DNA of 64,000 nt, taken from the NCBI GenBank assembly GCA_963813335.1, contig CAWEYL010000004.1, forward strand, positions 32,001 to 96,000, given 5' to 3'. Below, piece by piece: positions 2,457 to 48,487 of the stretch. The notes under the pieces are model-generated. The model did not search any database, was not told the DNA's origin, and saw only the letters and a program-made list of their open reading frames with translations. Source of the DNA: an uncultured Chloroflexia bacterium. Its GTDB lineage: Bacteria; Chloroflexota; Limnocylindria; Limnocylindrales; CSP1-4. Position 1 is the first letter of the stretch, and each line of letters begins with the position of its first letter. Position numbers and translations under genes: made by a program.

Positions 2457-5400
2457 GCCCCATCTCCTTCGTCGTGCGGGCGCTCGAGATGCGGGACCGT
2501 CCGCTCGATGCCGGCCAGCCCCTGGTAGTAGTGCCAGCGCTCGTCGGCGTCCTTCTGCGCGAGGGTCGCGAGCTCGGCGGCGCGCTCCGGATGCGTCCGG
2601 CCGAGGATGGCGAACCGGGTCTCGCCCGCCGCGAACTCCGCGATCGGGATCGATGGCGGTCCCGAATCGAGCTTGAACGGCTTGCCGCCCTCGATCTCCG
2701 ACGGGTGGAACCGGTACAGCGGCCAATAGCCGCTCCGGACCGCGTCCTTCTGGTGGCTCATCGACTTGGCCATGTCGATCCCGTGGGCGATGCAGGTGCT
2801 GTAGGCGATCACGAGCGATGGCCCCGGCCAGGCCTCGGCCTCGAGGAGGGCGTTCGTCGTCTGGGCGTCGCTGGCGCCCATCGAGACCTGCGCGACGTAG
2901 ACATCGCCATAGGACCGCGCGATGGCGCCGAGGTCCTTCTTGGCGGTCCGCTTGCCGGCGGCGGCGAACTTGGCGACAGCGCCGCGCGGGGTCGACTTGG
3001 ACGACTGCCCGCCGGTGTTCGAGTACACCTCCGTATCGAGGACCAGGATGTTCACGTTGCGACCGGACGACAGCACCTGGTCGAGGCCGCCGAACCCGAT
3101 GTCGTAGGCCCACCCGTCGCCGCCGATGATCCAGACCCCGCGGCGCACGAGGGCGCCGGCGATCGCGAGGAGCTGCCGGGCGTCGGACGCGTCGGGTCCG
3201 TCGATGGCGGCGAGCGCCGTGCGGAGGCGCTCGACCCGCTCGCGCTGGAGCGCGATCCCGGGCTCGTCGTCCTGATCGGCAGCGAGGATGCCCGCGACCA
3301 GGTCGGCATCGAGGCGCGGCGCGAGCCGCTCGAGGAGTCGGCCTGCCTGGTCGCCCTGCGCGTCGAGGGCCAGGCGCATGCCCAGCCCGAACTCGGCGTT
3401 GTCCTCGAAGAGTGAGTTGGCCCACGCCGGGCCCCGACCGGCCGCGTCGACCGTCCACGGGGTCGTGGGCAGGTTCGCGCCATAGATGGACGAGCAGCCC
3501 GTCGCGTTGGCGACGATCATGCGGTCGCCGAAGAGCTGGGTCACGAGGCGGATGTACGGCGTCTCGCCGCAGCCGCCGCACGCCCCCGAGAACTCGAACA
3601 GCGGCTCGAGGAGCTGCGACCCCTTGACGGTGTCGTGCGGGAGCACGCTCCGATCGAGCCGCGGGATGGTCCGGAAGAAGTCCCAGCGCTCGCGCTCGAC
3701 GTCGCGATGCTCGGCGACCGGGGCCATGTCGATCGCCTTGTGGCTGATGTCGGTCTTGCTCTTGGCCGGGCAGACGTCCACGCAGACGCCGCAGCCGGTG
3801 CAGTCATCGGGTGCGACCTGGATGGTCAGCCGGTGGTCGACCAGCTCGCGCGAGCGGAACTCCTTGTGGAGGAAGCCCGCCGGAGCGCCCTCGAGCGACG
3901 CCGTCGGGAAGACCTTCATCCGGATCGAGGCGTGCGGGCAGACCATCGCGCACTTGCCGCAGTCGATGCAGATGGCCGGATCCCAGACCGGGATGGTCTG
4001 GGCGATGGCCCGCTTCTCGTACGCCGCGGTCCCGGTCGGGAACGTGCCGTCGACCGGGAGCGCGCTCACCGGCAGCCGGTCGCCATCGCCGGCCAGCAGG
4101 CGCGCCGTGAACCTGGTCACGAACTCCGGCACGGTGGCCGCGGGAGCGACCGCCGGCAGCGCGGACCCGACCGGCCCGGGCGCGACGTGGGCGAGGCGCT
4201 CGATGGCCGCGTCGATCGCGGCGAAGTTGCGCGCGACGATGGCCTCGCCGCGCTTGGCATACGTCTTCTTGACGAACGCCTTGATCCCGGCGATCGCCTC
4301 GGCCGGCGGGAGGATGCCCGCCAGGTGGAAGAAGCAGGGCTGCATCACGGTGTTGATGCGGCTGCCCATGCCGACCTCCGCCGCGACGGCGAGTGCGTCG
4401 ATGACCCACAGGTCGATCGACTTGTCGACGATCTGCTGCTGGACGCCGACGGGCAGGTGCGCCCAGACCTCGGCGGGTCCGTACGGCGCGTTGAGCAGGA
4501 ATGTGGCGCCCGCCTTGGCATGCTCGAGCATCGGGACCCGGCCGAGCAGGCCGAACTGGTGGCAGGCCACGAAGTCGGCCTCGTCCACGAGGTACGTGGA
4601 GCGGATGGGCTCCGGGCCGAAGCGCAGGTGCGACACGGTGATCGACCCGGACTTCTTGGAGTCGTAGACGAAGTACCCCTGGGCGTACCGGTCCGTGCTC
4701 TCACCGATGATCTTGACCGACGCCTTGTTGGCGCCGACCGTGCCGTCCGATCCGAGCCCGAAGAAGAGGGCCTGGACCTCGCCCGCCGGGCGGGCCGCCC
4801 GGAAGACCGGGTCGATCGGCAGGCTCAGGTGGGTGACGTCGTCCTCGATGCCGAGCGTGAAGTGGCGGAGTGGCCGGGCCGTGGCGAGGGCGTCGAAGAC
4901 CGGCTTGAGCATGGCCGGCGTGAGCTCCTTGGACGACAGGCCGTAGCGCCCGCCGATGACCCGCGGGACGGTCGCGAAGGGCGGCTCGTCGCGGTCCATG
5001 GCCTCGGCCAGGGCGGCGACCACGTCGAGGTAGAGGGGCTCGCCGATGGCACCCGGCTCCTTCGTGCGGTCGAGGACCGCGATGGCGCCGACGGTCGGCG
5101 GCAGGGCCCCCAGCAGCTGGGCCGCCGGGAACGGCTGGAAGAGGCGGACCCGGATCATGCCGACCCGCTCGCCGGTGGCGACGAGCGCGTCGACAGTCTC
5201 CTCCAGGGCTCCGGCTGCGGAGCCCATCACGACGATCACCCGGTCCGCGTCGGGTGCGCCGTGGTAGTCGACCAGGCCGTATTGACGCCCCGTCCTCGCC
5301 GCCAGCTCCTCGAAGACGTCCTCGACGATCCCGGGCACGGCGAGATGGAACGGGTTCGACGCCTCGCGGGCCTGGAAGAACACGTCGGGGTTCTGCGCCG

Positions 5401-37262: not shown

Positions 37263-38870
37263 GTGCCAGTCCGCCGCCGGTCGTCGCTCGGGGCGCCGAT
37301 CGCCCTCGTCGCGCTGCTCCTCGCCTCGGTCGCGGCTCCCGCGAGCGCGTCGGCGAGCGAGTTCCCGGCCGGCTATACCGGGTACCACAGCTACACCGAG
37401 GTCGCCGCCGACGTCGCGGCCACCGCCGCCGCCCACCCGGACATCGTCCAGCGGTTCTCGATCGGCAAGAGCTACCAGGGCCGCGAGATGTGGGCCGTCA
37501 AGGTCTCGGACAACGTCACGGTCGACGAACCCGAGCCCGAAGTCCTCTTCGACGGCGGCACCCACTCCGACGAGCACATGGGCGTCGAGATGACGCTCAG
37601 CATCTTCCACTGGCTCGTCAACGGGTACGGCACGGACCAGCGCATCACCGACATCGTGAACTCGCGCGAGATCTGGATCGTCTTCATCGTCAACCCCGAT
37701 GGTGTCGAGCACGACATCTCGGGCGGCAGGTTCCACCTCTGGCGCAAGAACCGCCAGCCGACGCCGGGCACCACGTCGATCGGGACGGACCTCAACCGGA
37801 ACTACGGCTACAAGTGGGGCGGCGGCGGCCGGACCAGCACGAACCCGCAGGCGATCACCTATCGCGGGCCGAGCGCCTTCTCGGCGCCCGAGACGCGGAA
37901 CATGCGCGACTTCCTGGCCAGCCGGGTCGTCAACGGTCGCCAGCAGATCCGCACCGCCATCACCTTCCACGAGGATGGCCGGCTGGTGATGTGGCCGTAC
38001 GGCTACACCTACGCGAACATCCCGGCCGACATGACCGCCCAGGACCACAACGCGCTCGTCTCGATCGGCAAGCACATGGCGAGCACGAACGGGTACAAGC
38101 CCGAGCAGGCCAGCGACCTGTACATCACCTCCGGCACGACCCGTGACTACGAGTACGGGATGTACCGGATCTTCTCGTACACGTTCGAGATGTCGATCGG
38201 CGCCTACATGGACGATTCGAAGATCGCGTCCGAGACCGGTCGCAACAAGGCCGCCGTCCTGTACCTGATGGAGCGGGCGTGGTGCCCGCTCTCGGTGCTG
38301 GGCACGGCCGTCCGCCAGGCACGGTGCGGCGCCTTCGACGAGGACTTCGAGGTCTCCCGCGGCTGGACGATCAACCCCGACGGCACCGATTCCGCACCCG
38401 CGTCGGGCCGGTTCGCCCGCGGCACGCCGGCGGCCACCACCTACAACGGCCCCAAGCAACTCCACAACGTCCCTTCCGGCGCACGGGCGCTGGTGACCGG
38501 GCTGGCGGCGGGCACCGGCCCGAGCGCGGGCGACCTCGACGGGCGGACGACCGCCCGCTCGCAGCCGATCGCGCTGCCGGCCGCCACGGGCCAGCGTCTG
38601 ACGTTCCGGTATGTGTTCGCCCACGACGCGCGCTCGTCCGCGGCCGACTCGCTCCAGGCGATCGTCGAGAAGGGCGACGGCTCGCAGGTCGTCGTCTTCA
38701 CGACGTCCGGCACGGCCGCCGATGTCGACGGCGCGTGGCATAGCGCCTCGATCCCGCTGGACGCGTTCGCCGGCCAGACCATCCGGCTCCGCTTCACAGC
38801 GGTCGACGGCGGCCCGTCGAACGTCCTCGAGGTCGAGCTCGACGATGTCCGGGTGACCCGCCCGGGCTGA
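37263..38870 (+). CDS. secreted M14 zinc carboxypeptidase (carboxypeptidase T-like) with C-terminal beta domain
   Basis: Signal peptide, HSDE, WRKNR, DLNRN, YRGPSAFSAPE, FH, TFE. Confidence 0.9.
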   Translation: MPVRRRSSLGAPIALVALLLASVAAPASASASEFPAGYTGYHSYTEVAADVAATAAAHPDIVQRFSIGKSYQGREMWAVKVSDNVTVDEPEPEVLFDGGTHSDEHMGVEMTLSIFHWLVNGYGTDQRITDIVNSREIWIVFIVNPDGVEHDISGGRFHLWRKNRQPTPGTTSIGTDLNRNYGYKWGGGGRTSTNPQAITYRGPSAFSAPETRNMRDFLASRVVNGRQQIRTAITFHEDGRLVMWPYGYTYANIPADMTAQDHNALVSIGKHMASTNGYKPEQASDLYITSGTTRDYEYGMYRIFSYTFEMSIGAYMDDSKIASETGRNKAAVLYLMERAWCPLSVLGTAVRQARCGAFDEDFEVSRGWTINPDGTDSAPASGRFARGTPAATTYNGPKQLHNVPSGARALVTGLAAGTGPSAGDLDGRTTARSQPIALPAATGQRLTFRYVFAHDARSSAADSLQAIVEKGDGSQVVVFTTSGTAADVDGAWHSASIPLDAFAGQTIRLRFTAVDGGPSNVLEVELDDVRVTRPG

Positions 38871-38916
38871 CCTCGTCCGTCACCGCCCTGTCACGCTCCG
38901 TGAATAGACTGCGGCC

Positions 38917-39600
38917 ATGAGGTTCTTCAGTACCAAGCCCGCGTCCATCCCCTCCCCCGCCGAGTCCCTCCCCGGGCGGTCGTCCCCGATCATGACCCCG
39001 GGCATCCACCGGGTCCTCGGCACGCCGCTCGCCGGCCCGTGGCCCGCCGGCACGAAGACCGCGGTCTTCGGCCTCGGCTGCTTCTGGGGCGACGAGAAGG
39101 ACTTCTGGCAGGTCCCCGGCGTGGTGACGACGGCCGTCGGGTATGCCGGCGGCCATACCCCCAATCCCACCTACGAGGAGGTGTGCTCGAGCCGCACGGG
39201 GCACGCCGAAGTGGTGCTCGTCGCGTACGACCCCGCGAAGGTGACGTACGAGCGGCTGCTCAAGACGTTCTGGGAGAGCCACGACCCCACCCAGGGCATG
39301 CGCCAGGGCAACGACATGGGCACCAGCTACCGCTCGATCATCCTCGTCGCCGACGAGGAGCAGCGGGCTGCCGCCGAGGCCTCGAAGGCCATGTTCCAGG
39401 AGCGCCTGTCGGCCAAGGGCTACGGCGCCATCACGACCGAGATCGCGGATCGGGCCGACTTCCCGTTCTACTACGCCGAGGACTACCACCAGCAGTACCT
39501 CGACAAGAAGGGAAATGAGAACGGGTATTGCCCGGACCACCGCACCGGGGTCAAGCTGCCGGACGACTTCGTGGTGACGCCGCTGCAGTACGTGGACTGA
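38917..39600 (+). CDS. msrA: peptide-methionine (S)-S-oxide reductase
   Basis: [18 protein letters not shown]...[23 protein letters not shown]; leaderless TAGACT-6nt-ATG. Confidence 0.97.
39526..39600 (+). repeat. msrA 3'-tail repeat, copy 1 (in gene)
   Basis: TATTGCCCG...CAGTACGTGGACTGA = [24 protein letters not shown]. Confidence 0.92.
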
Positions 39601-39637
39601 GCCCGAAGCCAAGGCAGTGCCGCGGTAGGATGCAGGC

Positions 39638-40075
39638 GTGCGTGTCGTGGTTGCGGGTGCTCATGAGAAACGCCTCCGCGTACGCCCCGCAGCCGCTGTC
39701 CTGCTCCTCGCGGCTGGACTTGGTCTGGCCGGATGCTCGCCTTCCCAGTCCGACCTAATCATCTACAACCGGACGACCGTCCCAATCGCGGTCGTGACGT
39801 ACGACGACACGAACTACGTGGACGCATGTGCCTCTGCGCGATTCAGATGGACGCCTCGACTGACTCCGGTAAGCCCGGAGACCGTCCCATCGCCTCCACC
39901 TTCCGACTCGGTGCAGATTCTGCTCCCGGCGGACTACTTCCCGCCGCCGGATGGGCAGGGCTCCGCCGTCCGGTCGCTGGTCGTCACGAGTAGCGACGTC
40001 ATCACAGACTCGCCTCCGTTCGTGGAGCATCCTGACCCATCATTGCCACCATGCGAGGGTGTCCCCCCGGCATAG
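39638..40075 (+). CDS. hypothetical lipoprotein (cargo 1)
   Basis: LAGC lipobox, IIYNRTTVPI; own -10 TAGGAT 6 nt before GTG; more AT-rich codons than host. Confidence 0.75.
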   Translation: MRVVVAGAHEKRLRVRPAAAVLLLAAGLGLAGCSPSQSDLIIYNRTTVPIAVVTYDDTNYVDACASARFRWTPRLTPVSPETVPSPPPSDSVQILLPADYFPPPDGQGSAVRSLVVTSSDVITDSPPFVEHPDPSLPPCEGVPPA

Positions 40076-40102
40076 CGCCGGGCCAGCGGCAGTAGTCCCG
40101 CT

Positions 40103-40192
40103 GAGAATCCCCGGGGCTATTGCCCGAACCACTCGACCGGCGTGAAGCTGCCGGACGGCTTCGCGGTCACGCCGCTGCAGTACGTCGACTAG
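40103..40192 (+). repeat. msrA 3'-tail repeat, copy 2 (orphan)
   Basis: Encodes [29 protein letters not shown]; 63/75 nt identical to copy 1 over 40118-40192. Confidence 0.92.
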
Positions 40193-40302
40193 GCAGCTCA
40201 GGCCGCGGCATATCTAGGATCTCGTAACACGGTCGCAATGGCGGCGTCCTGGTTGGCAGGATGCGACGCAGAGTTCGCGAACAGGCGGTAGGAGGTCGAC
40301 CG

Positions 40303-40797
40303 ATGAGTGACCCGAGTGTCTATCGGGCCGACGGCGGCGCCGAAGAAACACCGCCTGTCGACGCTCGGGTACGATCGGGAACCAGCCGATCCATCACTCG
40401 TGGCTTCGCTTGTGGGCTGATCGGCGGGATCGCGATCGTCATGGCGATCGCCTGGGTGTCGAGCCTTCGCTTGAGCCTGAGCGTCGAGCAGGGCTTCATC
40501 GGGGCATGCATCTTGGCCACATGCGTCGGGCTGCTCACGGCTTGGGTTTCGCGCGGGTTCAGGGGCCTGGCGGGGCTCCTCATCGGAGGATACGTCGGAG
40601 GGCTCGTCGGAATCTGGATCACGAACTCCGCAAACGATGGCATTGGCACCGGAGACGTTGGTTTCTATGACTTCGCCGGGGCCATGGTAAGAGCAGCGAT
40701 CTGGTTCACTTGGCCTGTATTGACAACCGTCGGTTACGGCGTCGGCCGAGGTCTCTTCGACTCTCGGAAGACACCCGGCGGGGCTGCCGCGCCATGA
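40303..40797 (+). CDS. hypothetical ~4-TM membrane protein (cargo 2)
   Basis: AGGAGG RBS, four Gly-rich hydrophobic segments, atypical codon usage. Confidence 0.72.
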   Translation: MSDPSVYRADGGAEETPPVDARVRSGTSRSITRGFACGLIGGIAIVMAIAWVSSLRLSLSVEQGFIGACILATCVGLLTAWVSRGFRGLAGLLIGGYVGGLVGIWITNSANDGIGTGDVGFYDFAGAMVRAAIWFTWPVLTTVGYGVGRGLFDSRKTPGGAAAP

Positions 40798-40904
40798 TCC
40801 GGCGACGTACTGTCCCGGGAACCTTCGATCGGAAACCCTAGGCGGCCGCCGAACCCCCCCACGCAGGACCGGTGTCTCATGGCGCGCCTCCGGCATTACG
40901 CTGA

Positions 40905-41004
40905 CCTGTCTCAGAACCCCCCGAGCCTATTGCCCGAACCACACTCGACCGGCGTGAAGCTGCCGGATGACTTCGTGGTCACGCCCTTCCAGTACGTAGA
41001 CTGA
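40905..41004 (+). repeat. msrA 3'-tail repeat, copy 3 (orphan, frameshifted)
   Basis: LSQNP/RAYCPNH(+AC)[19 protein letters not shown]; core 40928-41004. Confidence 0.9.
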
Positions 41005-41080
41005 CGCCAAGACCGCTCGGTCGTGAGCCGGTCGGCCCGTTGACCGACCGGCTCCACGACGGTCGGCAGGAGGACGCGAG

Positions 41081-41669
41081 ATGATCGACCCGATCGCGGA
41101 CATCATCGGCGACTACCGGGCTTTCGCCGCGCAGCAGCGCGACCGCCTGCTCGCCCGGGGCATCGATATCCGTCCGTACCTGCTCAGCCACCTCGCCGTC
41201 CGCGTGCCGGAGTGGGACCAGTACGTCCACCTGCGGACCCTGCTCGAACGCCACGCGACCGCGAACGCCGAGAACGTCTGGAACGGCCGGCCGATCTCGA
41301 AGATCCTCCTCGCCACGCCGCTCGAGGTCCTCGACGGGATGTCCGTCCCGCTCATCGAGCTTATCCCGCCCGTTCACCAGCGCGTCTACAAGATGGGCCT
41401 CGAGCATCTCGGGGTCGTCGTCGGTGAGGAGGTCGACGCCTTCTCCCGCGAGCATCGCGCGGCCCTGACCGGACAGCAGTTCCAGAGCGCCGGCTTCGAG
41501 CCGTACTACGTCCTCTTCGAGGACTTCACCCACGTGAAGTTCTACCGGATGCTCGCTCCATGATGGCTGCGTCCTCCAGGGGGCCACGTTCGACGGCTTC
41601 GTACACGTCGACGACTGGGTCCCGCAGCGCCTCGTGACGGCGACCGGCCCCAACCCGCTGCCCCGGTGA
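41081..41669 (+). pseudogene. VOC/YecM-like protein with a 1-nt frameshift (cargo 3)
   Basis: SHLAVRV, ENVWNGRPI, LIELIPP, GLEHLGVVV, VKFY; skipping C41552 continues SLHDGCVLQGATFDGFVH to TGA 41669. Confidence 0.75.
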
Positions 41670-41745
41670 ACGAGCCTCCCGCCGTCGTACGCGGACTGAC
41701 CGAACAGCCCGCCGTCCCGAAGATGGCGGGCGTTCCCCGGAATCG

Positions 41746-41776
41746 AACGGCCCCGGATCGTCGATCCGGGGCCGTT
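41746..41776. terminator. bidirectional terminator hairpin
   Basis: AACGGCCCCGGATC-GTC-GATCCGGGGCCGTT between convergent genes. Confidence 0.7.
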
Positions 41777-41798
41777 TCCGTTCGGGGAGGTTCGAGCC

Positions 41799-42311
41799 TC
41801 AGTACCCGTACCTGCCGCCCGAGCTCGGAGCTGGCGCCGGGGCAGAGGCGTCGGGCACGAGACCGGACCCACTGACCGTCGCGATCGAGAAGCCCTCGAC
41901 ACCGTTGCCGGTCGCGTCGCCGGCCTTCGTGTCGCCCTGCCAGTAGTAGAGCGGCAGGCCGCCGTACGTGACCTGGGTCGCACCATCCGGGCGGGTCAGG
42001 GTACCGAGCTGACCGGTGACTCCGGCCCGTGCCGTCGGCTGGCCCGTGGTTTCAAGGGGTGGCCAGGCGGTGGCGCAGCTGCCGGTGCAGCTCGACGAGG
42101 TCGCCGTATCCCCCGCGTGGGTGTACAGCGTCATCCCGCTCGGGCCGGTCAGGACCACGCCAAGGCTTGGTGAGCTGGCGGAACCGACGATGACCCCGGC
42201 GTTGCTCAAGGTGCCGCCACCGAGGGCGCTGGGACTGGCGGCATTCGACGTGCACGCGGCGACGGCGATGACGGCCGCGGCGAGAAGGGAAAGAAGGCGA
42301 GTGACAGACAT
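41799..42311 (-). CDS. COG4315/Lipoprotein_15-type secreted lipoprotein
   Basis: VAAC lipobox, GMTLY, CTGSCATAWPP, QVTYGGLPLYYWQGD, GYGY end. Confidence 0.88.
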   Translation of the reverse strand: MSVTRLLSLLAAAVIAVAACTSNAASPSALGGGTLSNAGVIVGSASSPSLGVVLTGPSGMTLYTHAGDTATSSSCTGSCATAWPPLETTGQPTARAGVTGQLGTLTRPDGATQVTYGGLPLYYWQGDTKAGDATGNGVEGFSIATVSGSGLVPDASAPAPAPSSGGRYGY

Positions 42312-42404
42312 TCGCGAAACTCCGAGATAGGCGAGTGAGCCGACCGTGGCTCACATACTCGAAGTACGCGGCATGCCAGGGCAGTGGTTTTGGGCGATCG
42401 CGTG

Positions 42405-42607
42405 GCCGAGTATCTGACCGACGGACTGGCTTGCATCGTCGAGGTGGAGCATCGCGAAGCGAAGGTCGGCGGGAGTGGGGACCTTTGCCGATCGACTTGC
42501 GCGTGACGACCGTCCTTCGACCGGAGGACGGGACCTGGAAGATCGCTCACCGCCACGCCGATCCGATCACGTCGGCTCGTTCGGCGGCTTCGGTCATCGA
42601 GCGATAG
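42405..42607 (+). pseudogene. 3' remnant of an NTF2/SnoaL-like gene
   Basis: EYLTDGLACIVEVEHREAKVGG /frameshift/ DLRVTTVLRPEDGTWKIAHRHADPIT; no start or N-terminus. Confidence 0.65.
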
Positions 42608-42619
42608 CTTCGACGTCAC

Positions 42620-43645
42620 TCACGGCACGAGCACGGCCCGACCGCGCACCGTCCGCGCGTGGAGCCTCTCGTACGCCCTCGGACCGTCTTCGAGGCTGAA
42701 CTGCTCCGTCTCGACGGTGATGGCGCCGGACCGCGCGAGGTCGAGCACCTCGTACAGCTCCGGGCGGGTCCCCCAGACGGGGCGGCGGACGGTGATCCCA
42801 CTTGGAAGCGTGTCGGCGCCGACCGGGATCGCGCCCGGGCCGAGGCCGACCATGGCGATGTCGGACCATCGGCCGACCAGCTTCGCCGCCAGCTCGGCGG
42901 CCTCTTGCAGTCCCACGAAGTTGAAGACCGCTTCAACGCCTCGGCCACCGGTGAGGTCGCGCACGGCCTGGATCGATGAGGTGTCGGCGTAGAACGCGGC
43001 GTGAGCGCCGACCTCGCGAGCGAAGGCGAGCTTGTCCTCGCTGATGTCGAGCGCGACGATCTGCGCTGGCGAGAGTGCCCTGAGGATCTGGATCGCGAGG
43101 TGGCCTAGACCGCCCACGCCGATGACGACCGCCGTCGAGCCCGGGACGAGCTTGGGAAGCGATGGCTTGATCGCGTGGTAGGGCGTGAGCCCGGCGTCAG
43201 TGAGCGGGACGGACCGGACCGGGTCGAGGTTTCCGAGCGGAACGAGATGCCGCGCGCTTGGCACGAGCAGGTAGTCGGCCATGAACCCGGGAGCATCGAT
43301 GCCGGGCCACGGGGAGCCTTCGCCGATGCAGTAGTTTTCGGCGCCTGCGGCGCATGCGCGACAGGAGCCACAGCCCCAGGCGCCATAGATCGCGACTGCG
43401 TCGCCTTCCCTGATGCCGGTGACCGCACTGCCGAGTCGCTCCACGATGCCAGCGCCTTCGTGTCCGAGCGTCAACGGCAACGGGGTCGCGAACTCCTCGG
43501 GCGCGAGGCTCATGAAGTACTCGTCCGAGTGGCAGACGCCCGCCGCAGTCGTCTTGATCAGGACCTCACCGGGTCCCGGCTCCGGGATCGGTACCTCGCG
43601 GATCTCTGGAGGACGTCCGAACGCCGTGTACTGCAGCGCCCGCAT
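42620..43645 (-). CDS. zinc-dependent NAD(P) alcohol dehydrogenase
   Basis: GVCHSD, LGHEGAG, CGSCRAC...NYC, GVGGLG. Confidence 0.93.
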   Translation of the reverse strand: MRALQYTAFGRPPEIREVPIPEPGPGEVLIKTTAAGVCHSDEYFMSLAPEEFATPLPLTLGHEGAGIVERLGSAVTGIREGDAVAIYGAWGCGSCRACAAGAENYCIGEGSPWPGIDAPGFMADYLLVPSARHLVPLGNLDPVRSVPLTDAGLTPYHAIKPSLPKLVPGSTAVVIGVGGLGHLAIQILRALSPAQIVALDISEDKLAFAREVGAHAAFYADTSSIQAVRDLTGGRGVEAVFNFVGLQEAAELAAKLVGRWSDIAMVGLGPGAIPVGADTLPSGITVRRPVWGTRPELYEVLDLARSGAITVETEQFSLEDGPRAYERLHARTVRGRAVLVP

Positions 43646-43801
43646 CTGTCTTCTCCTCTCTCGCGACCGATCCGAGAGTACACGCCTCGATCGGTCAGAT
43701 ACTCGTCACCCGGTCACGTGCGGATCCGGGCGTTGCCACCCGCGACGCCCAGGTGGCATCCTCCCGGATGGGGGAACCGGCTCGACGGCTGAGGGCTGGC
43801 G

Positions 43802-44464
43802 ATGGATCGATCCGATCCGGCATATCGAGGGCAGGCCGACTACAGCCCGCTCTTGCTCAAGCTCTACGATCCGATCGTCATCGGTGTCGTCTCCCGGCTG
43901 GTATGGAGGTTTCCGCCCGATCGGCTGCCGGATGAGTACCAGGCCCGGATCCGGGATCGCCACCTCGACGTCGGTCCCGGCACGGGGTACCTGATCGACC
44001 ACTCGGGGATCCCTGACGGCCGCCACGTCACCATCGTCGACCCGAACCCGAACGTGCTCCGGCACGCGACGAAGCGACTCCGCCGGCTCGACGTCACAGC
44101 CGTCGAGGCGGACGTCCTGAAGCCACTGCCTGTGGACGGCCCCTTCGACTCGGCGGCCCTCTGCCTCGTCATCCACTGCCTGCCCGGTCCCCTGGCCCGG
44201 AAGGCCACTGCGATCGCCAATATCGCGGCGGTCCTCGCGCCGGACGGCGTCCTCTTCGGTGCATCCGTGCTCGGGCGGTCCGGGCGGCACACCTGGCTCG
44301 GTCGCCGGGTCCTCGCCGCGTTCAACCGGCGCGGCGCCTTCGACAACCTCGATGACAGCGCGGAAGGTCTCCGCGAGATCCTCGCAGCCTCCTTCGAGCG
44401 CGTGGAGATGGAGACGTTCAGGTCAGTCGTCGTCTTCGCCGCGTCGAGACCGCGGGCTGGGTAG
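43802..44464 (+). CDS. class I SAM-dependent methyltransferase
   Basis: HLDVGPGTGY, ADVL, IHCLPG, LFGASVLG. Confidence 0.88.
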   Translation: MDRSDPAYRGQADYSPLLLKLYDPIVIGVVSRLVWRFPPDRLPDEYQARIRDRHLDVGPGTGYLIDHSGIPDGRHVTIVDPNPNVLRHATKRLRRLDVTAVEADVLKPLPVDGPFDSAALCLVIHCLPGPLARKATAIANIAAVLAPDGVLFGASVLGRSGRHTWLGRRVLAAFNRRGAFDNLDDSAEGLREILAASFERVEMETFRSVVVFAASRPRAG

Positions 44465-44565
44465 CCTGTGGGTCGTCACGGCGGGCAGGACGTCGACCTC
44501 GGCGAGGCTGACAGGCTCGTGACTTCAGCGACGGGGCCCGCTACGCTTGCCTCGGAGGTGCCACG

Positions 44566-44814
44566 ATGACGGTCCAACGGGCCTTGGAAGAGGCCATGCA
44601 CCATGAGACCTCGGCCGGCGTGATGGACGCGCTCGTCCAACAGGGCGTGTGGATGGCCGACGAGGACACGATGACGGCGGCGATCCACAACGTGTACTGC
44701 GGCATCATGGCCGACCACGAGCACCCGAACGAGAAGGATCGCGATCAGGCCCGACAGTTGATCGCCGCCATCGGGAAGTCGATGGGGACCGGCGCCGGGG
44801 CAGCGAGCGACTGA
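44566..44814 (+). CDS. small hypothetical protein
   Basis: GGAGGTG RBS, TACGCT -10 upstream, HNVYC...DHEH. Confidence 0.65.
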   Translation: MTVQRALEEAMHHETSAGVMDALVQQGVWMADEDTMTAAIHNVYCGIMADHEHPNEKDRDQARQLIAAIGKSMGTGAGAASD

Positions 44815-44848
44815 CGCCGGCGACGGTCCGCCGCTCGTGCCGCCGCGG

Positions 44849-45535
44849 TCATCCGGCGGAGGCGGCGTCCGTCAGGTCCCGATCCTGCATCTCCCACGCG
44901 TGGTCGAGCGCGTGGTACGCCGTGTGGCGAAGCAGGTACGGGATCGTCCAGTTGCCGAGCGGCTTGCCGTCGGCATACCAGGCGCGCATCGCATCGACGT
45001 AGCGGTCGCGGTGATGGGCAAGGCCGCCCGGCGTCCGCAGGTCCTCCAGCTCGGACGGCATCTTCACGCGCGCCGAGAAGTCTCCGCCCTCGACCCCCAG
45101 CACATGCTGGACGATCCGGTCGCGGGAGCGGCCACCGCCGCGGACGCCCAGGCGCAGCTCCGCCGAGACGCGCGCGGCCGTCTCGTCGAACTCGGCCCAC
45201 GCCGCGCGCAGCAGGCGCACCTGGCGGTCGAAGGTCGGCGCATCGAACGGCTCGCGGTCGAGCGGTGATGGCGCGAACGAGATGCCCCAGAAGTCGGTCG
45301 AGCCGACTCCCGGGTAGCGGCCGATGATGTCGGGGGCGGTCTGCGTCGCGAGCTCCGCGCCCAGCCGGGCGCGCTTCGCGACGGGGAGGTAGCGAGGCAC
45401 GTAGCGGACGACCTTCTCGACCGCCTCGTCCTCCGTCTTGCCACCCCGTTCGAGACCCGGCCAGTCCGCAGCGACGGCGACCCAACGCTTCCCTCTCGTG
45501 GGCTGTTCGACGAGGACGCGAAGCTGCGACGTCAC
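44849..45535 (-). CDS. hypothetical protein, HicB-like N-terminus and DinB-like C-terminus
   Basis: DWPGLERGGKTEDEA, STDFWG, GGGRSRDRIVQHV, LLRHTAYHALDHAWEM. Confidence 0.78.
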   Translation of the reverse strand: MTSQLRVLVEQPTRGKRWVAVAADWPGLERGGKTEDEAVEKVVRYVPRYLPVAKRARLGAELATQTAPDIIGRYPGVGSTDFWGISFAPSPLDREPFDAPTFDRQVRLLRAAWAEFDETAARVSAELRLGVRGGGRSRDRIVQHVLGVEGGDFSARVKMPSELEDLRTPGGLAHHRDRYVDAMRAWYADGKPLGNWTIPYLLRHTAYHALDHAWEMQDRDLTDAASAG

Positions 45536-45582
45536 CGGCTCATCGTAGCGATACGTGGACGAGCCTCCACCCTGCACACGAA

Positions 45583-45653
45583 GAGACCCTCCCGACGCCG
45601 GGAGGGTCTCCGTCATGTCTCGAAGGTGCGGCCCCGTCATCGAGACGGGGCCG
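45583..45653 (-). terminator. double hairpin
   Basis: GAGACCCTCCCG-ACGC-CGGGAGGGTCTC and CGGCCCCGTC-ATCGA-GACGGGGCCG. Confidence 0.6.
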
Positions 45654-45663
45654 TCGTCGGACG

Positions 45664-46845
45664 CTACTTGCGGTTGTTGTAGCTCGCGAGGCCGGACCAG
45701 TCTCCGCGCACAGCGTAGGACGCCTGGGTCGGCCAGGAGTCGAGGCTCGACGGTGGCAGGGCCCCGCCCGCCGCGATGATCTTGCGCAGCTCCGATGGGT
45801 CGGTGTGCTCGAGCTGTGCGTACGTGGTGACGCCGCCGACGGACAGGATCGTGGAGATCCGCGGCCCGATCCCGTTGAGCTGCGTCAGGTCGTCGGGCGG
45901 CGCGGCCTTGGCGGGCTTGGCCGCCTTCGACTTCGTCGCGCCGCGCTTGCTCGACGCGGTCGCCTTCTTGTTGTACTTCATCAGGCCTTGCCAGTCGCCG
46001 CTCGCGGCGTAGCTCGCCTGCTGCGGCCACGTCCCGACGTTGGCAGGGGGCGCCATGTCCGCGGCGTGGAGCGCATGCCGGACCTCTGGCTCGTTCGCGT
46101 CGGCCAGCGCGGCGTAGGTGGTGATGCCCGCGGCCGCCAGGGCCGCGCTCGCCTTCGGCCCGATGCCGGCGAGCTGCGTCAGGTCTTCCGGAGCCGCCGC
46201 GACCGGTGCCGGTGCGGGGGCCTCGGCCGGCGCAGCCTCGGCCGGCGCCGGAGCCTCCGCCGGAGCCTCCTCGGGGACCTCGACTTCGTAGTCGGCAACG
46301 ACCTCGTCGCCGCCAAGCGCCTCGACCGCCGGATCGACGAGCGCCTGGAGCGCGACGGCCGTCTTGGCAGGCAGCGTGTTCGAGATCAGGAGGGCCTTTT
46401 CGCCCGCGATGGCCTGTTGGATCATGCCGATCGATGCGGCCCAATTCCCTTCATACAGGATGAAGACGGCGCTCTTTCCCTTGGTGAGCTCCTTGGTGAC
46501 CTGGCGCATGAACTTGTCGTCGATCCCGATGTCGTGCAAGCGGTTGCGAAGGCCATTCAGGACACCGCCAGCCGCGCCGCCGACGACCGCGCCGGCCGGG
46601 CCCAGCAGGATGGCGCCGGCGATGACACCGACGCTGGCACCACGGACGGTGCCCTTCGCGCCGCCGAGGTCCTTGGTCTGATGGACCTTGACCCGGAACC
46701 TGGTCCGGTCGGCGATGGCGGCATCGACGATCTTGACGTTGGGGTCGACGTCATCGATCTCCTGGATCCGCTTCAGGAATTGCCGTGACGCCTTGCCCGA
46801 GTCCATCACGAACGCGGCGAGGGTCTGTCCGTAGTCTTCGCTCAT
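45664..46845 (-). CDS. DUF1269-like protein with two helix-hairpin-helix modules
   Basis: Gly zipper, DIGIDDKFM...GKSAVFIL; two DLTQLxGIGP...GxTTYAxL...WPxQA repeats. Confidence 0.8.
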   Translation of the reverse strand: MSEDYGQTLAAFVMDSGKASRQFLKRIQEIDDVDPNVKIVDAAIADRTRFRVKVHQTKDLGGAKGTVRGASVGVIAGAILLGPAGAVVGGAAGGVLNGLRNRLHDIGIDDKFMRQVTKELTKGKSAVFILYEGNWAASIGMIQQAIAGEKALLISNTLPAKTAVALQALVDPAVEALGGDEVVADYEVEVPEEAPAEAPAPAEAAPAEAPAPAPVAAAPEDLTQLAGIGPKASAALAAAGITTYAALADANEPEVRHALHAADMAPPANVGTWPQQASYAASGDWQGLMKYNKKATASSKRGATKSKAAKPAKAAPPDDLTQLNGIGPRISTILSVGGVTTYAQLEHTDPSELRKIIAAGGALPPSSLDSWPTQASYAVRGDWSGLASYNNRK

Positions 46846-47123
46846 CGATCCAGTCTCCTCTCATCAGGGACGGTGGCTGCCACAGCCGTGGCCATATGAG
46901 CCGTCGGACCTCGTCATCCGGGTCGCGGTCGACGAGGGCGGTGGGGGGTCGGTCACGGCGGGACCATGCCGTCCGCGGTGCGGAGGCGCCCATCGACGAC
47001 CAGTGACCGATCCTTCAGACACCTCCTCCCGGGAGCCTGCCGGATCGGCCCTCTCTGGGGTGTGCGAGGGGCCTCGACCTGTTTCCCGGCAGTCGCCCGA
47101 CGATGCTAGGCCTCGGCGGCCCG

Positions 47124-47320
47124 TCACGCAACTTGGAAAGGGGCTGGACGACGCCGATGCCCGTGTCGGCCGACCCAGGATTCGAGTGCATGCCCGGGTG
47201 GGATCTCGTAGGCGTCTCCCGCCACGATGTCCAGGTCGGTCCCCTCGTCCATCATGACGCGCAGGTGCCCGGTCATGAGGTACCCGACGTGGCGGTTCTG
47301 GCACGATGTCTCGCCGCGGG
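47124..47320 (-). pseudogene. cupin-domain gene remnant
   Basis: SCQNRHVGYLMTGHLRVMMDEGT...GDAYEIPPGH; N-terminus absent and C-terminus decays. Confidence 0.6.
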
Positions 47321-47349
47321 AGCGACCGCGATAGAGCACGGAGGTGGTC

Positions 47350-47739
47350 ATGGGCATCCTGAACGACAACCCGATGTTCCCGATCCTGCTGTCGTTGGAT
47401 CTCGATGCCAGTCGCACCTTCTATCACCACGTCCTGGGACTCGACATCCTCCGCGAGGACGCCGGCGATCGGATCGTCTTCCTCGGCGGCGGCGGGACGC
47501 AGCTTGCGGTGACTGCCAGCACGGTCGGCACCGCAGACACGCAGACCCAGGTGGCCTGGCGCGTCCCGGATATCCACGCTGCGGTCGCTGAGCTCAGGGA
47601 ACGCGGCGTGCGCGTCGAAGCCTACGTCGCACCCGATCCGGTCACGGTGGACGGCGTCGCGGACATGGGCCACTCGTGGGCGGCGTGGTTCATCGATCCC
47701 AGCGGAAACGTCCTCGCGGTCGTCCAGCCGAAGGGTTGA
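47350..47739 (+). CDS. VOC/glyoxalase family protein
   Basis: DLDASRTFYHHVLGL...AWFIDPSGNVL; GGAGG RBS. Confidence 0.9.
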   Translation: MGILNDNPMFPILLSLDLDASRTFYHHVLGLDILREDAGDRIVFLGGGGTQLAVTASTVGTADTQTQVAWRVPDIHAAVAELRERGVRVEAYVAPDPVTVDGVADMGHSWAAWFIDPSGNVLAVVQPKG

Positions 47740-47809
47740 CCCGGCCGGACTCACCGGTGCTTCATCCGGGCGTCACATGCCCCGAAGCTCGGGATGCTAC
47801 GTTGCTGCG

Positions 47810-48487
47810 ATGACAGACATCGAGGACCCGTTTCCGCCGGCGGTGGATGCGCCCGCCGGCGAACGCTACCTCCTGCTCGCCGACATCTCCGGCTATACCG
47901 GCTTCATGACCGGCGTCGAGAACGAGCACGGCGCCGACTTCAGCGCGGGGATCCCCGCAGCGTACGGCATCCTCGCCGGCCTGCTCGATTCGGTCGTCAC
48001 GGGGGTCGCGCCCGACTTCGACCTGGTCAAGCTCGAAGGCGATGCCGTCTTCGCGGTCGCGCCGGCGGCCCGCCTGGACGGCCGCGGAGACCGCGTCCTC
48101 GAGCGCCTCGAGACCACATACCAGGCGTTCGTCGAGAGCCGGACGCGGGCCATCCCCGCGCACGACCACATCTGCGTCGCCTGCCCCGCGGTCGCCGACC
48201 TCGACCTCAAGGTGGTCCTCCATCGCGGCCACACCGTGCGCCAGACGGTCGGGTCCAGCAGCGACCTGCTCGGCCCGGCCGTGACCGTCGCCCACCGCCT
48301 GCTCAAGAACACCGTCCGCGACCGCATCGGGTACCGGCCCTATCTCTTGCTGACGGAGCCTGCGGCCACCGAGCTCGGCCTCCCCGACATCGGCCTGGCC
48401 CACCACGAGGACTACGCCGACGCCGGGCCGATCGACGGCCGGGTGGTGGAGCTCGGCGGACCCTCTGGCGAGCCCGGTCCGCGCTAG
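47810..48487 (+). CDS. DUF2652 domain protein (nucleotide cyclase-like fold)
   Basis: LLADISGYTGF, KLEGDAVF, CVAC, LKVVLHRG, VAHRLLKN. Confidence 0.85.
   Translation: MTDIEDPFPPAVDAPAGERYLLLADISGYTGFMTGVENEHGADFSAGIPAAYGILAGLLDSVVTGVAPDFDLVKLEGDAVFAVAPAARLDGRGDRVLERLETTYQAFVESRTRAIPAHDHICVACPAVADLDLKVVLHRGHTVRQTVGSSSDLLGPAVTVAHRLLKNTVRDRIGYRPYLLLTEPAATELGLPDIGLAHHEDYADAGPIDGRVVELGGPSGEPGPR

Follow-up and report, generated by a model that had tools for sequence, protein, structure and literature searches.

The 3′ end of msrA as a probable attachment site for small cassettes without a recombinase gene in uncultured soil Chloroflexota

Why would the end of a housekeeping gene stand three times in a row on a bacterial contig, each time with a different gene behind it? 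The question is raised by msrA, the gene for peptide methionine sulfoxide reductase, in a stretch of 64,000 nucleotides (nt) from an uncultured Chloroflexia bacterium, referred to here as the window (positions 32001-96000 of contig C4 in genome G000). This genome is a metagenome-assembled genome (MAG) of 7 contigs and 2.54 Mb, with 72% G+C and a completeness of 81%. The reading that best accommodates the results, and that we hold to be probable, is that small mobile cassettes devoid of a recombinase gene attach to the 3′ end of msrA, making it an accretion platform that is site-specific, integron-like, and served in trans.

The last ~90 nt of msrA were found three times on the same strand, at 39506-39600, 40104-40192, and 40913-41004 (tails 1, 2, and 3), which bears out the original prediction that the last 75 nt of the gene recur twice downstream. 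A repeat search of the locus returned a single three-copy direct-repeat family, at 39523-39598, 40115-40190 (86% identical to the first copy), and 40927-41002. When the tails were compared by blastn-short over the whole assembly, tails 1 and 2 were 86.3% identical over 73 nt (E 4e-12), tails 2 and 3 were 88.2% identical over 76 nt (E 1.8e-14), and tails 1 and 3 were 86.0% identical over 57 nt (E 2.6e-7). Because no further copy in the 2.54 Mb matched better than E 0.06, the repetition is far beyond chance. In the alignment, the tails are alike from about GAGAA, which stands 13-19 nt before TAT-TGC (Tyr-Cys), as far as the stop codon, and a weaker likeness, also anticipated, reaches ~20 nt further upstream. 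All the genes lie on the plus strand, in the order msrA, a lipoprotein-like open reading frame (ORF), tail 2, a membrane-protein ORF, tail 3, and a gene of the YecM family. The predicted layout and co-orientation were thus correct; the identity given for the last gene, a VOC (vicinal oxygen chelate) gene, was not, as Pfam places it in YecM (PF06185). The G+C content at third codon positions (GC3) was ~0.70 for both cargo ORFs, against 0.92-0.95 for msrA and the YecM gene. The array at this locus is real and not an artefact. A scan of 38700-42000 for promoters and terminators gave 0 sites of either kind, and a search of 38500-42500 against Rfam gave three matches only, all under the gathering scores. 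The features of the locus are the following, in window positions.

38917-39600, plus strand: msrA, encoding a peptide methionine sulfoxide reductase of 227 aa (PF01625, E 4.9e-59); its last 95 nt lie in cassette 1.
39506-39509, plus strand: putative crossover AGAA (..CTCGACA|AGAA..), at the joint 39505->40104, where these 4 letters fit either side.
39506-40103, plus strand: cassette 1 (tail 1, lipoprotein cargo, and left arm), 598 bp, its limits uncertain by up to +4; exactly the stretch skipped in contigs of the metagenome runs X1 and X2.
39506-39600, plus strand: tail 1, the functional msrA end, by alignment a variant with two extra codons.
39638-40075, plus strand: cargo 1, a lipoprotein-like ORF of 145 aa (GC3 0.71) with a LAGC lipobox-like motif read by eye and no Pfam family.
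40087-40105, plus strand: left arm of cassette 1, CGGCAGTAG..GCTGAG, a diverged mimic of the msrA Gln-Tyr-Leu-Asp-Lys codons.
40104-40192, plus strand: tail 2, an orphan msrA end with its reading frame intact; the functional tail in the empty-site form.
40104-40912, plus strand: cassette 2 (tail 2, membrane-protein cargo, and left arm), 809 bp, with 87% identity over its whole length to unit 1 of G139.
40261-40797, plus strand: cargo 2, an ORF of 178 aa (GC3 0.69) with several hydrophobic stretches read by eye and no Pfam family.
40890-40914, plus strand: left arm of cassette 2, CCGGCATTACGCTGACCTGTCTCAG, near the family-wide consensus.
40913-41004, plus strand: tail 3, the oldest orphan tail, with a broken frame; its downstream flank aligns to the msrA-yecM junction of G011.
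41081-41669, plus strand: YecM-family gene (PF06185), with an ORF at 41081-41563 and a frame that resumes to 41669 after a 1-nt shift.
41679-41701, plus strand: possible fourth tail-end remnant, ..GTCGTACGCGGACTGA, weak (nhmmer E = 8), in the position that a tail holds after yecM in G017.

The crossover AGAA straddles the Lys codon and the next one, 13-19 nt upstream of the Tyr-Cys codons, and the orphan tails of relatives begin at the same boundary. The G+C content of cassette 1 is 0.65, against 0.72 for the genome. Its two-extra-codon tail is also the functional tail in G065, and its cargo has a homologue in array unit 1 of G304, a member of another genus. The broken frame of tail 3 is due to a 2-nt insertion within 40940-40944, which shifts its register. 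The yecM gene was also found as a tail-flanked cassette in G017, G139, G120, G169, and G296. In the window, its ORF encodes 160 aa, with a stop at 41563, versus 198-205 aa in relatives, and an X3 contig lacks one base at 41551; the early stop is probably an assembly indel rather than a true frameshift.

What, then, is repeated, the tail alone or a larger unit? The question was examined with a tail profile in 53 loci (759 kb), taken from G000, 19 unselected relatives, and 33 genomes picked for having several matches. All 144 tail matches were on the msrA strand, 53 of them functional ends and 91 orphans, and all 91 orphans were cut at one left edge. Profile positions 1-3 were the starting point of 52 of the 53 functional copies, and none of the 76 orphans that reach the stop codon extended there. 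This shared left boundary, one of the checks proposed with the original prediction, is ..AG|AA.., directly after the Leu-Asp-Lys codons. On its left the orphans carry not the msrA sequence CAGCAGTACCTCGACAAG but a distinct arm, approximately CGGCAATACGCTGACCTGTCTGAG, which is usually 6 nt longer and is followed by AAYCC..GGCTAYTGCCC. The arm consensus is kept across seven genera and was seen in g23, g7, g9, g11, g15, and g4, and an empty msrA end reads ..GACAAGAAT.. around the joining point.

Three genomes with a common unit 1 and different sequences behind it (G086, G097, and G100) were used to assign the tail to its cargo. In all three pairs, identity was 97-99% over the 150 nt to the left of tail 2 and 85-87% in tail 2 itself, and the sequences beyond were unrelated. 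Since identity drops at tail 2, the tail belongs with the cargo behind it, and the unit consists of a replacement tail, a cargo of 0.15-3.3 kb, and a conserved left arm of ~25 nt. The 86 units measured 153-3349 nt (median 864.5), had a G+C content of 0.62-0.71, under the 0.72 of the genome, and held one ORF in 56 cases, two or more in 29, and none in 1. A comparison of left- and right-arm spacings in the style of large serine recombinases was inconsistent between cassettes and distinguished only short and long arm types. Two irregular cases were also seen. At 3513-3735 of locus L051 in G132, the stop of tail 2 is directly followed by a left-arm-like stretch and a degenerate tail 3, and these nearly back-to-back tails may represent either an "empty" unit or the outcome of a deletion between sites; in G017, two partial tails are fused.

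Contigs of four metagenome runs were aligned to 38600-42000. One contig each in X1 and X2 joined 39505 directly to 40104, skipping 598 nt, with AGAA fitting both sides of the joint. The contig in X1 had a depth of 3.46 and a side of 33 nt, that in X2 a depth of 8.74 and a side of 26 nt, and over 313 nt of tail 2 and cargo 2 the former departed from the window by a single mismatch and a single gap. The occupied form was present in X1 as well, in a separately assembled contig that is unbroken over 39497-40124 and covers tail 1, cargo 1, and the start of tail 2. As read from the sequence, the joined form (..GAC AAG AAT CCC CGG GGC TAT TGC..) leaves msrA intact, with tail 2 as its end. The joint lies to the left of an 18-nt stretch unique to tail 1, at a point where AGAA is all that its partners have in common, which excludes homologous crossing-over inside the tails for that event. 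Another joint, 39542->41917 in X5, had a side of 21 nt and was too weak to use, and loose ends at 39507 and 39509 proved to be msrA genes of other organisms. No read contig covered 40880-40993 in the runs aligned.

The same cassettes turn up in more than one genome and at varying positions. Unit 2 of G000 is unit 1 of G139 (87% over the full length); the yecM unit is at position 1 in G017, 2 in G139, and 3 in G120; a quinone-oxidoreductase unit comes second in G100, G120, and G141 and third in G142; and unit 4 of G142 is contained in unit 3 of G116. G139 reads msrA, membrane unit, tail, yecM, and G000 has the same order plus the lipoprotein unit on the msrA side. Together with the empty form lacking exactly cassette 1 in two runs, this agrees with the predicted proximal position of the newest unit, as the frameshift in tail 3 does with the idea that the oldest tail is distal and decayed. 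A step in identity was found between G100 and G086. The gene upstream of msrA is 76% identical in the two genomes, and 50-nt windows of the msrA body range over 76-96%. Beginning at the ..AAG|AA.. boundary, identity is 88-100% (mostly 94-100%) over tail 1, unit 1, and the left arm, with the cassette 97% identical; tail 2 stands at 88-90%. The cassette that G100 shares with G097 has a more distant place in the array and is 90% identical. To judge from these identities, a recent proximal insertion in G100/G086, with the outer G100/G097 cassette the older one, fits the data. The pair G086/G097, for its part, hints at changes at internal tails, as recombination between cassettes would bring about.

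How widespread is this arrangement? A 111-nt tail query matched 116 of the 131 genomes of the genus, and in 67 of the 131, as tallied from the match table, it matched two or more times, with up to 6 matches. The 53 loci contained one tail in 13 cases, two in 15, three in 13, four in 4, five in 4, six in 2, and seven in 2, and two or more tails were present in 8 of the 20 loci of the unselected set. In G011, msrA is directly followed by yecM, and it is to this junction that the flank of tail 3 in the window aligns. Since the number of tail-cargo units varies among relatives, as the original prediction required, the arrangement is variable and not fixed. A protein search over 251 genomes of the order, which included two flagged as unpublished (G325 and G309, one match each), found genomes with several matches also in genera g23, g9, g11, g7, g15, g3, and g4 of the same family. 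In the sister family f2, whose genomes are small, nearly all had one match and, among the matches listed, two genomes had two. The 13 loci from other genera, picked for multiple matches, all contained arrays of 2-7 tails, with the maximum of 7 in G296 and G280.

An arm/tail DNA pattern gave 7 matches in genome contigs, all of them MAG contigs, and 0 matches in viral contigs. With a looser version, 28 metagenome contigs were collected, of which 25 contained tails and 19 two or more. L109, L119, and L122 had the pattern and no tail match, and their pattern matches are probably due to chance. In the metagenome contig L120 (11859 nt), six matches to the left two thirds of the tail profile lie 0.7-2.4 kb apart between 2074 and 9323; this looks like an array in a lineage with a different msrA end, as in G018.

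These observations can be accommodated in a simple model. A cassette brings a replacement tail of ~90 nt, which restores the msrA C-terminus, including the Gly-Tyr-Cys motif and the stop codon; a cargo of 0.15-3.3 kb, usually one gene; and a left arm of ~25 nt, which mimics the Gln-Tyr-Leu-Asp-Lys codons of msrA and usually has 6 nt more. For insertion, presumably of a circular or otherwise free cassette intermediate, the DNA would be broken and rejoined at ..AG|AA.., where the Lys codon meets the following one. In this way, msrA would retain a working end, and the earlier tail, with everything behind it, would be pushed downstream. Repeated insertion would lead to co-oriented arrays of up to 7 tails, in which old tails may decay until finally only the cargo genes are left. 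The enzyme acting in trans could be supplied by a helper element absent from the bins or by the host Xer pair, or it could belong to an unrecognised family. The anatomy of the units, their common boundary, the recurrence of cassettes elsewhere, the identity steps at cassette edges, and a precise empty site beside the occupied one are direct observations; the free intermediate and the trans-acting enzyme are deduced from them.

Several results, given in this paragraph and the next, weigh against this reading. No recombinase could be tied to the system. The tyrosine recombinase family PF00589 has three matches in G000 and none on contig C4, in line with the predicted absence of a recombinase from the window, and none was found near the arrays of G142, G139, G141, G097, and G116. 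The serine recombinase family PF00239 was unmatched in G000, G142, G141, G132, and G296 and gave only weak partial matches, far from the array, in G139; PF01797 (Y1 HUH transposase) had no match in G000, which is 81% complete. A Xer-like pair is the one tyrosine-recombinase set that the array-bearing genomes searched have in common. In G141, only two full-length Xer-like genes were present, ~45 kb apart, as in G142 after merging of four split matches, and the additional PF00589 matches are one partial each in G097 and G139 and one full-length plus one partial in G116. The same pair is present in 5 of 5 genomes of family f2, whose genomes, as far as searched, showed no arrays; one of the five has four more matches. 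In the search for an orphan recombinase, suggested with the original prediction, the third G000 integrase (C6:27615-28592) was considered as a trans-acting candidate. It or its relatives (32-95% identity) occur in only 38 of the 131 genus genomes and, with this protein as the query, were not found in G142, G141, G097, G100, and G132, and because of this patchiness the C6 type was dropped as a universal candidate.

The evidence on the cassettes themselves has its own weaknesses. The argument from the identity step is essentially one transfer event, and the joint rests on two short contigs from one study, maybe from the window's own sample, with one side under 30 nt. Circular cassette forms were not seen in the contigs, which cannot show rare forms. 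A few orphans, for instance tail 2 of G012, have an msrA-type rather than a cassette-type left arm. Cargo ORFs, as called by a crude GC3-based caller, were co-oriented with msrA in 75 of 127 cases and opposite in 52. All of the genomes, moreover, are MAGs, 55-95% complete.

Searches directed at the site and its surroundings were likewise negative. With a hidden Markov model (HMM) of 10 Xer-like proteins and six-frame ORFs, no tyrosine-recombinase-like ORF was found in the 53 loci or the 28 metagenome contigs, and no cognate integrase-bearing element was seen at msrA in the same set by this profile and one DNA pattern. The ATAA-N6-TTAT core of dif sites was not visible by eye in the msrA attachment (att) region; the single such 28-mer of G000, at C1:786986, is a candidate dif only, and GC skew was uninformative on the fragmented assembly. 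DNA folding of 62 nt around the arm/tail junction (60 shuffles each) gave no common hairpin of the attC type, with a mean z of -0.54 for 54 orphans and -1.07 for 52 functional sites. As no recombinase was found in cis, we infer a sequence-specific one acting in trans. A helper element missing from the bins is a possible source, the host Xer pair acting on a non-dif site a somewhat unlikely one, and an unrecognised enzyme a decidedly unlikely one; the rest of this rough split falls to there being no dedicated enzyme at all.

Could the same anatomy have arisen in that last way? Homologous recombination, unequal crossing-over, and gene conversion between tails might have multiplied and rearranged one old partial duplication of the msrA end, and the cassettes might have spread between species by ordinary recombination with msrA and the tails as homologous flanks. 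Tails that are 77-95% alike over ~90 nt could suffice for RecA exchange, the left arm might be shared through descent and not because of a function, and the failure to find a recombinase, the orphans with an msrA-type arm, and the fact that tails beside one cassette type are not always the most alike (unit 2 of G141 versus unit 3 of G142) all suit this explanation. It accounts less well for the empty/occupied joint, where the partners share AGAA only, to the left of the tail homology, or for a left arm whose sequence and, in most copies, +6-nt length have been kept over seven genera despite the divergence of msrA DNA. The steps in identity, too, fall at the arm/tail boundary and not at random, and ~92 unrelated cargo families are each found between a tail and a left arm, a setting that recombination between tails could not create. 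We regard this origin as improbable. That co-occurring strains which differ in the genes behind msrA were joined into a chimeric window by misassembly at the conserved tail is hardly credible. The window does come from a 7-contig MAG, and the empty and occupied forms occur in the same runs; nevertheless, arrays are present in 40 of the 53 loci, in a set with 52 other assemblies, several of 1-10 contigs, and two or more tails occur in 67 of the 131 genomes of the genus and in 19 of the 28 metagenome contigs. The separate X1 contig runs unbroken across tail 1, cargo 1, and the start of tail 2, and the orphan tails differ from one another and carry left arms that are absent from msrA.

The units might also be the remnants of larger, integrase-bearing elements (an integrative and conjugative element (ICE), a prophage, or a tycheposon-like element) that inserted at msrA and were mostly deleted. 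Integration at a 3′ end with a replacement tail, tandem accretion, and degenerate remnants are typical of such elements, tycheposons among them, and G000 has, in addition, a 5.5-kb island flanked by a tRNA-Pro 3′ repeat and devoid of a PF00589 match. Against this stand the lack of a tyrosine-recombinase-like ORF in the 53 loci and the 28 metagenome contigs (by the Xer-like HMM only), the absence of recombinases from the 30 cargo representatives examined, and the small size of the units, most of which (56 of 86) have a single ORF. The same small units, with both ends intact, are found in different genomes and positions, and the unit that is polymorphic in the population is the 598-bp cassette itself. 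Such decay is, in our estimation, very unlikely to explain the arrays. The attachment of small cassettes at the msrA 3′ end, served in trans, thus remains our preferred reading.

To which known system do these cassettes come closest? Integrons consist of the integrase IntI, an attI platform, and attC cassettes, and take up small, mostly one-gene units serially at the platform-proximal end; their recombination site travels with the cassette, the cargo is diverse, with small enzymes and proteins of no known function, and arrays exchange cassettes between species. The msrA locus shares the fixed platform, serial proximal insertion, small one-gene units, a site that travels with the cassette, diverse cargo, arrays of several units, and their exchange between species. 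It differs in that no intI adjoins the platform (no PF00589 match on C4 or near the arrays of five genomes, and no Xer-like HMM match in the 53 loci), that the platform lies inside the coding 3′ end of a housekeeping gene, which every incoming cassette has to restore, that the site on the cassette is a coding mimic of ~115 nt without an imperfect palindrome or a fold signal (mean z -0.54, n=54), and that cargo lies in both orientations. The predicted integron-like accretion platform was therefore largely supported as regards serial insertion at a shared point, but the resemblance to an integron is functional only: an adjacent intI, a folded attC, and co-oriented cassettes are all lacking. Integrons are not known from Chloroflexota.

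Other recombinase-less units are known. The cis-mobilizable elements (CIMEs) beside streptococcal ICEs and the ccr-less pseudo-SCC (staphylococcal cassette chromosome) elements at the rlmH 3′ end in staphylococci are att-bounded and tandem and are thought to be moved in trans, by a cognate recombinase that is known and is encoded on an ICE or SCC using the same site. The units at msrA are similarly att-bounded, lack recombination genes, and are stacked at a protein-coding 3′ end; in contrast, no partner element was present at msrA in the 53 loci, the units are much smaller, and the system spans a whole Chloroflexota family. IMEX (integrative mobile elements exploiting Xer) and the pdif modules of Acinetobacter plasmids are moved by XerC/XerD and bounded by 28-bp dif-like sites. 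They resemble the msrA cassettes as small modules without a recombinase gene, and a Xer-like pair is present in the array-bearing genomes searched, but the msrA site has no ATAA-N6-TTAT core by eye. Features of IS200/IS605 insertion sequences or palindrome-associated transposable elements (PATEs) were not found, as there was no PF01797 match in G000 and no hairpin signal, and large-serine-recombinase elements find no counterpart in the PF00239 searches. Integrative elements that use gene 3′ ends share with the msrA locus the direct repeats of the target end, the intact target gene, and an empty site, seen here in a relative (G011) and in the population (the X1 and X2 joint), but they encode their own integrase, and none was found in the 53 loci, the 28 metagenome contigs, or the 30 cargo representatives.

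The closest described systems are the additive flexible islands at tRNA genes, in which repeated 3′ ends mark successive insertions and units behind tRNA-Lys in Methylopumilus are as small as 330 bp (PMC10872708), and the tycheposons, which target tRNA genes and have their own tyrosine or large serine recombinase (bioRxiv 10.1101/2020.12.28.424599). Both are like the msrA arrays in their 3′-end repeats, in newcomers pushing older units inward, and in degenerate remnants; they have, however, a tRNA target and a repeat of ~20 nt, against a protein-coding target, a repeat of 90-115 nt, and no integrase-bearing element found here. The msrA cassettes are set apart by that protein-coding target, by the 90-115-nt coding-mimic repeat with its conserved, non-exchanged arm, by single-gene units, by the missing integrase partner, and by their family-wide span. 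In titles and the first lines of abstracts, msrA did not appear as an attachment site, and the supplements of the two island papers could hold small units without a recombinase.

A bolder and more tentative proposal is that the locus represents a new class of gene capture, an integron on a housekeeping gene, in which the coding 3′ end of msrA would be the docking site, the ~115-nt mimic the portable site, and a recombinase encoded elsewhere would move single-gene cassettes in, out, and between species. The host Xer pair, active on a non-dif site, may provide that recombinase, or an unrecognised family may. If this were true, a whole family of soil Chloroflexota would have a common pool of small detoxification and redox genes. 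Gene-capture platforms without a linked recombinase are rare and poorly understood, and msrA offers a natural system in which the docking point is fixed to 4 nt, the portable site is conserved, and ~90 cargo families occur in 53 loci, with evidence for transfer between species and for presence and absence inside one population. It raises the question of which enzyme would recognise a mimic of a coding sequence and cut at one codon boundary, and of how accessory genes are exchanged in uncultured Chloroflexota of the soil, in whose bins classical mobile elements are few. Orphan msrA tails are, in any case, a simple annotation marker for flexible islands in such genomes.

What the cassettes carry is highly diverse. 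The 127 ORFs called in the 86 units fell into ~92 sequence families, 19 of them common to two or more units and 73 singletons. Among the 30 cargo representatives, 22 had a Pfam match (E <= 0.001) and 8 had none. The matches comprise YecM, glyoxalase/VOC, ABM monooxygenase, SnoaL-like, Zn-dependent dehydrogenases, esterase, alpha/beta-hydrolases, GNAT, methyltransferases, MarR, adenylate-cyclase domains, adenosine deaminase, META, RibD_C, DUF2652, DUF4259, and a glycogen-debranching-like hydrolase; no recombinase or transposase family was present. By our own tally, 13 of the 22 Pfam-supported genes were co-oriented with msrA and 9 were opposite.

In the window, four genes further downstream are homologous to tail-flanked cargo of other genomes, with protein identities in the range of 76-93%. 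To judge from these identities, the island probably continues for ~7 kb past the visible array as cassettes with decayed tails. The features concerned, for which no strand was assigned, are the following.

42620-48487: tail-less continuation of the island, containing the four genes below.
42620-43645: alcohol dehydrogenase (ADH) gene.
43802-44464: methyltransferase gene.
44566-44814: ORF of 82 aa.
47777-48487: DUF2652 gene.

Finally, it was asked whether other conserved genes of G000 show the same pattern, as had been suggested. Comparison of the genome with itself, followed by a search of the genus, revealed one other duplication of a gene tail, at locus L125 outside the window. There, the final 57 nt of a gene for 329 aa and the 25 nt downstream of it, at C1:739949-740030, are repeated 353 nt further on, at C1:740302-740383, with 94% identity; the filler between the copies is lower in G+C, and CGCTGAC stands to the left of copy 2, as in the msrA cassette arms, maybe by chance. 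The second copy is present only in G000 among the 131 genus genomes, which leaves msrA as the only platform seen. The tRNA-Pro(ggg) gene has a 53-nt copy (96%) of its 3′ half 5.5 kb away (C1:900676-906314), and the island so bounded contains low-GC3 ORFs and no PF00589 match, forming a recombinase-less island at a tRNA site. At C2:34587-35429, three tandem small genes with a Flp-pilin-like hydrophobic segment gave rise to 141-nt repeats (94% and 80% identity), which are ordinary paralogues rather than tail cassettes.

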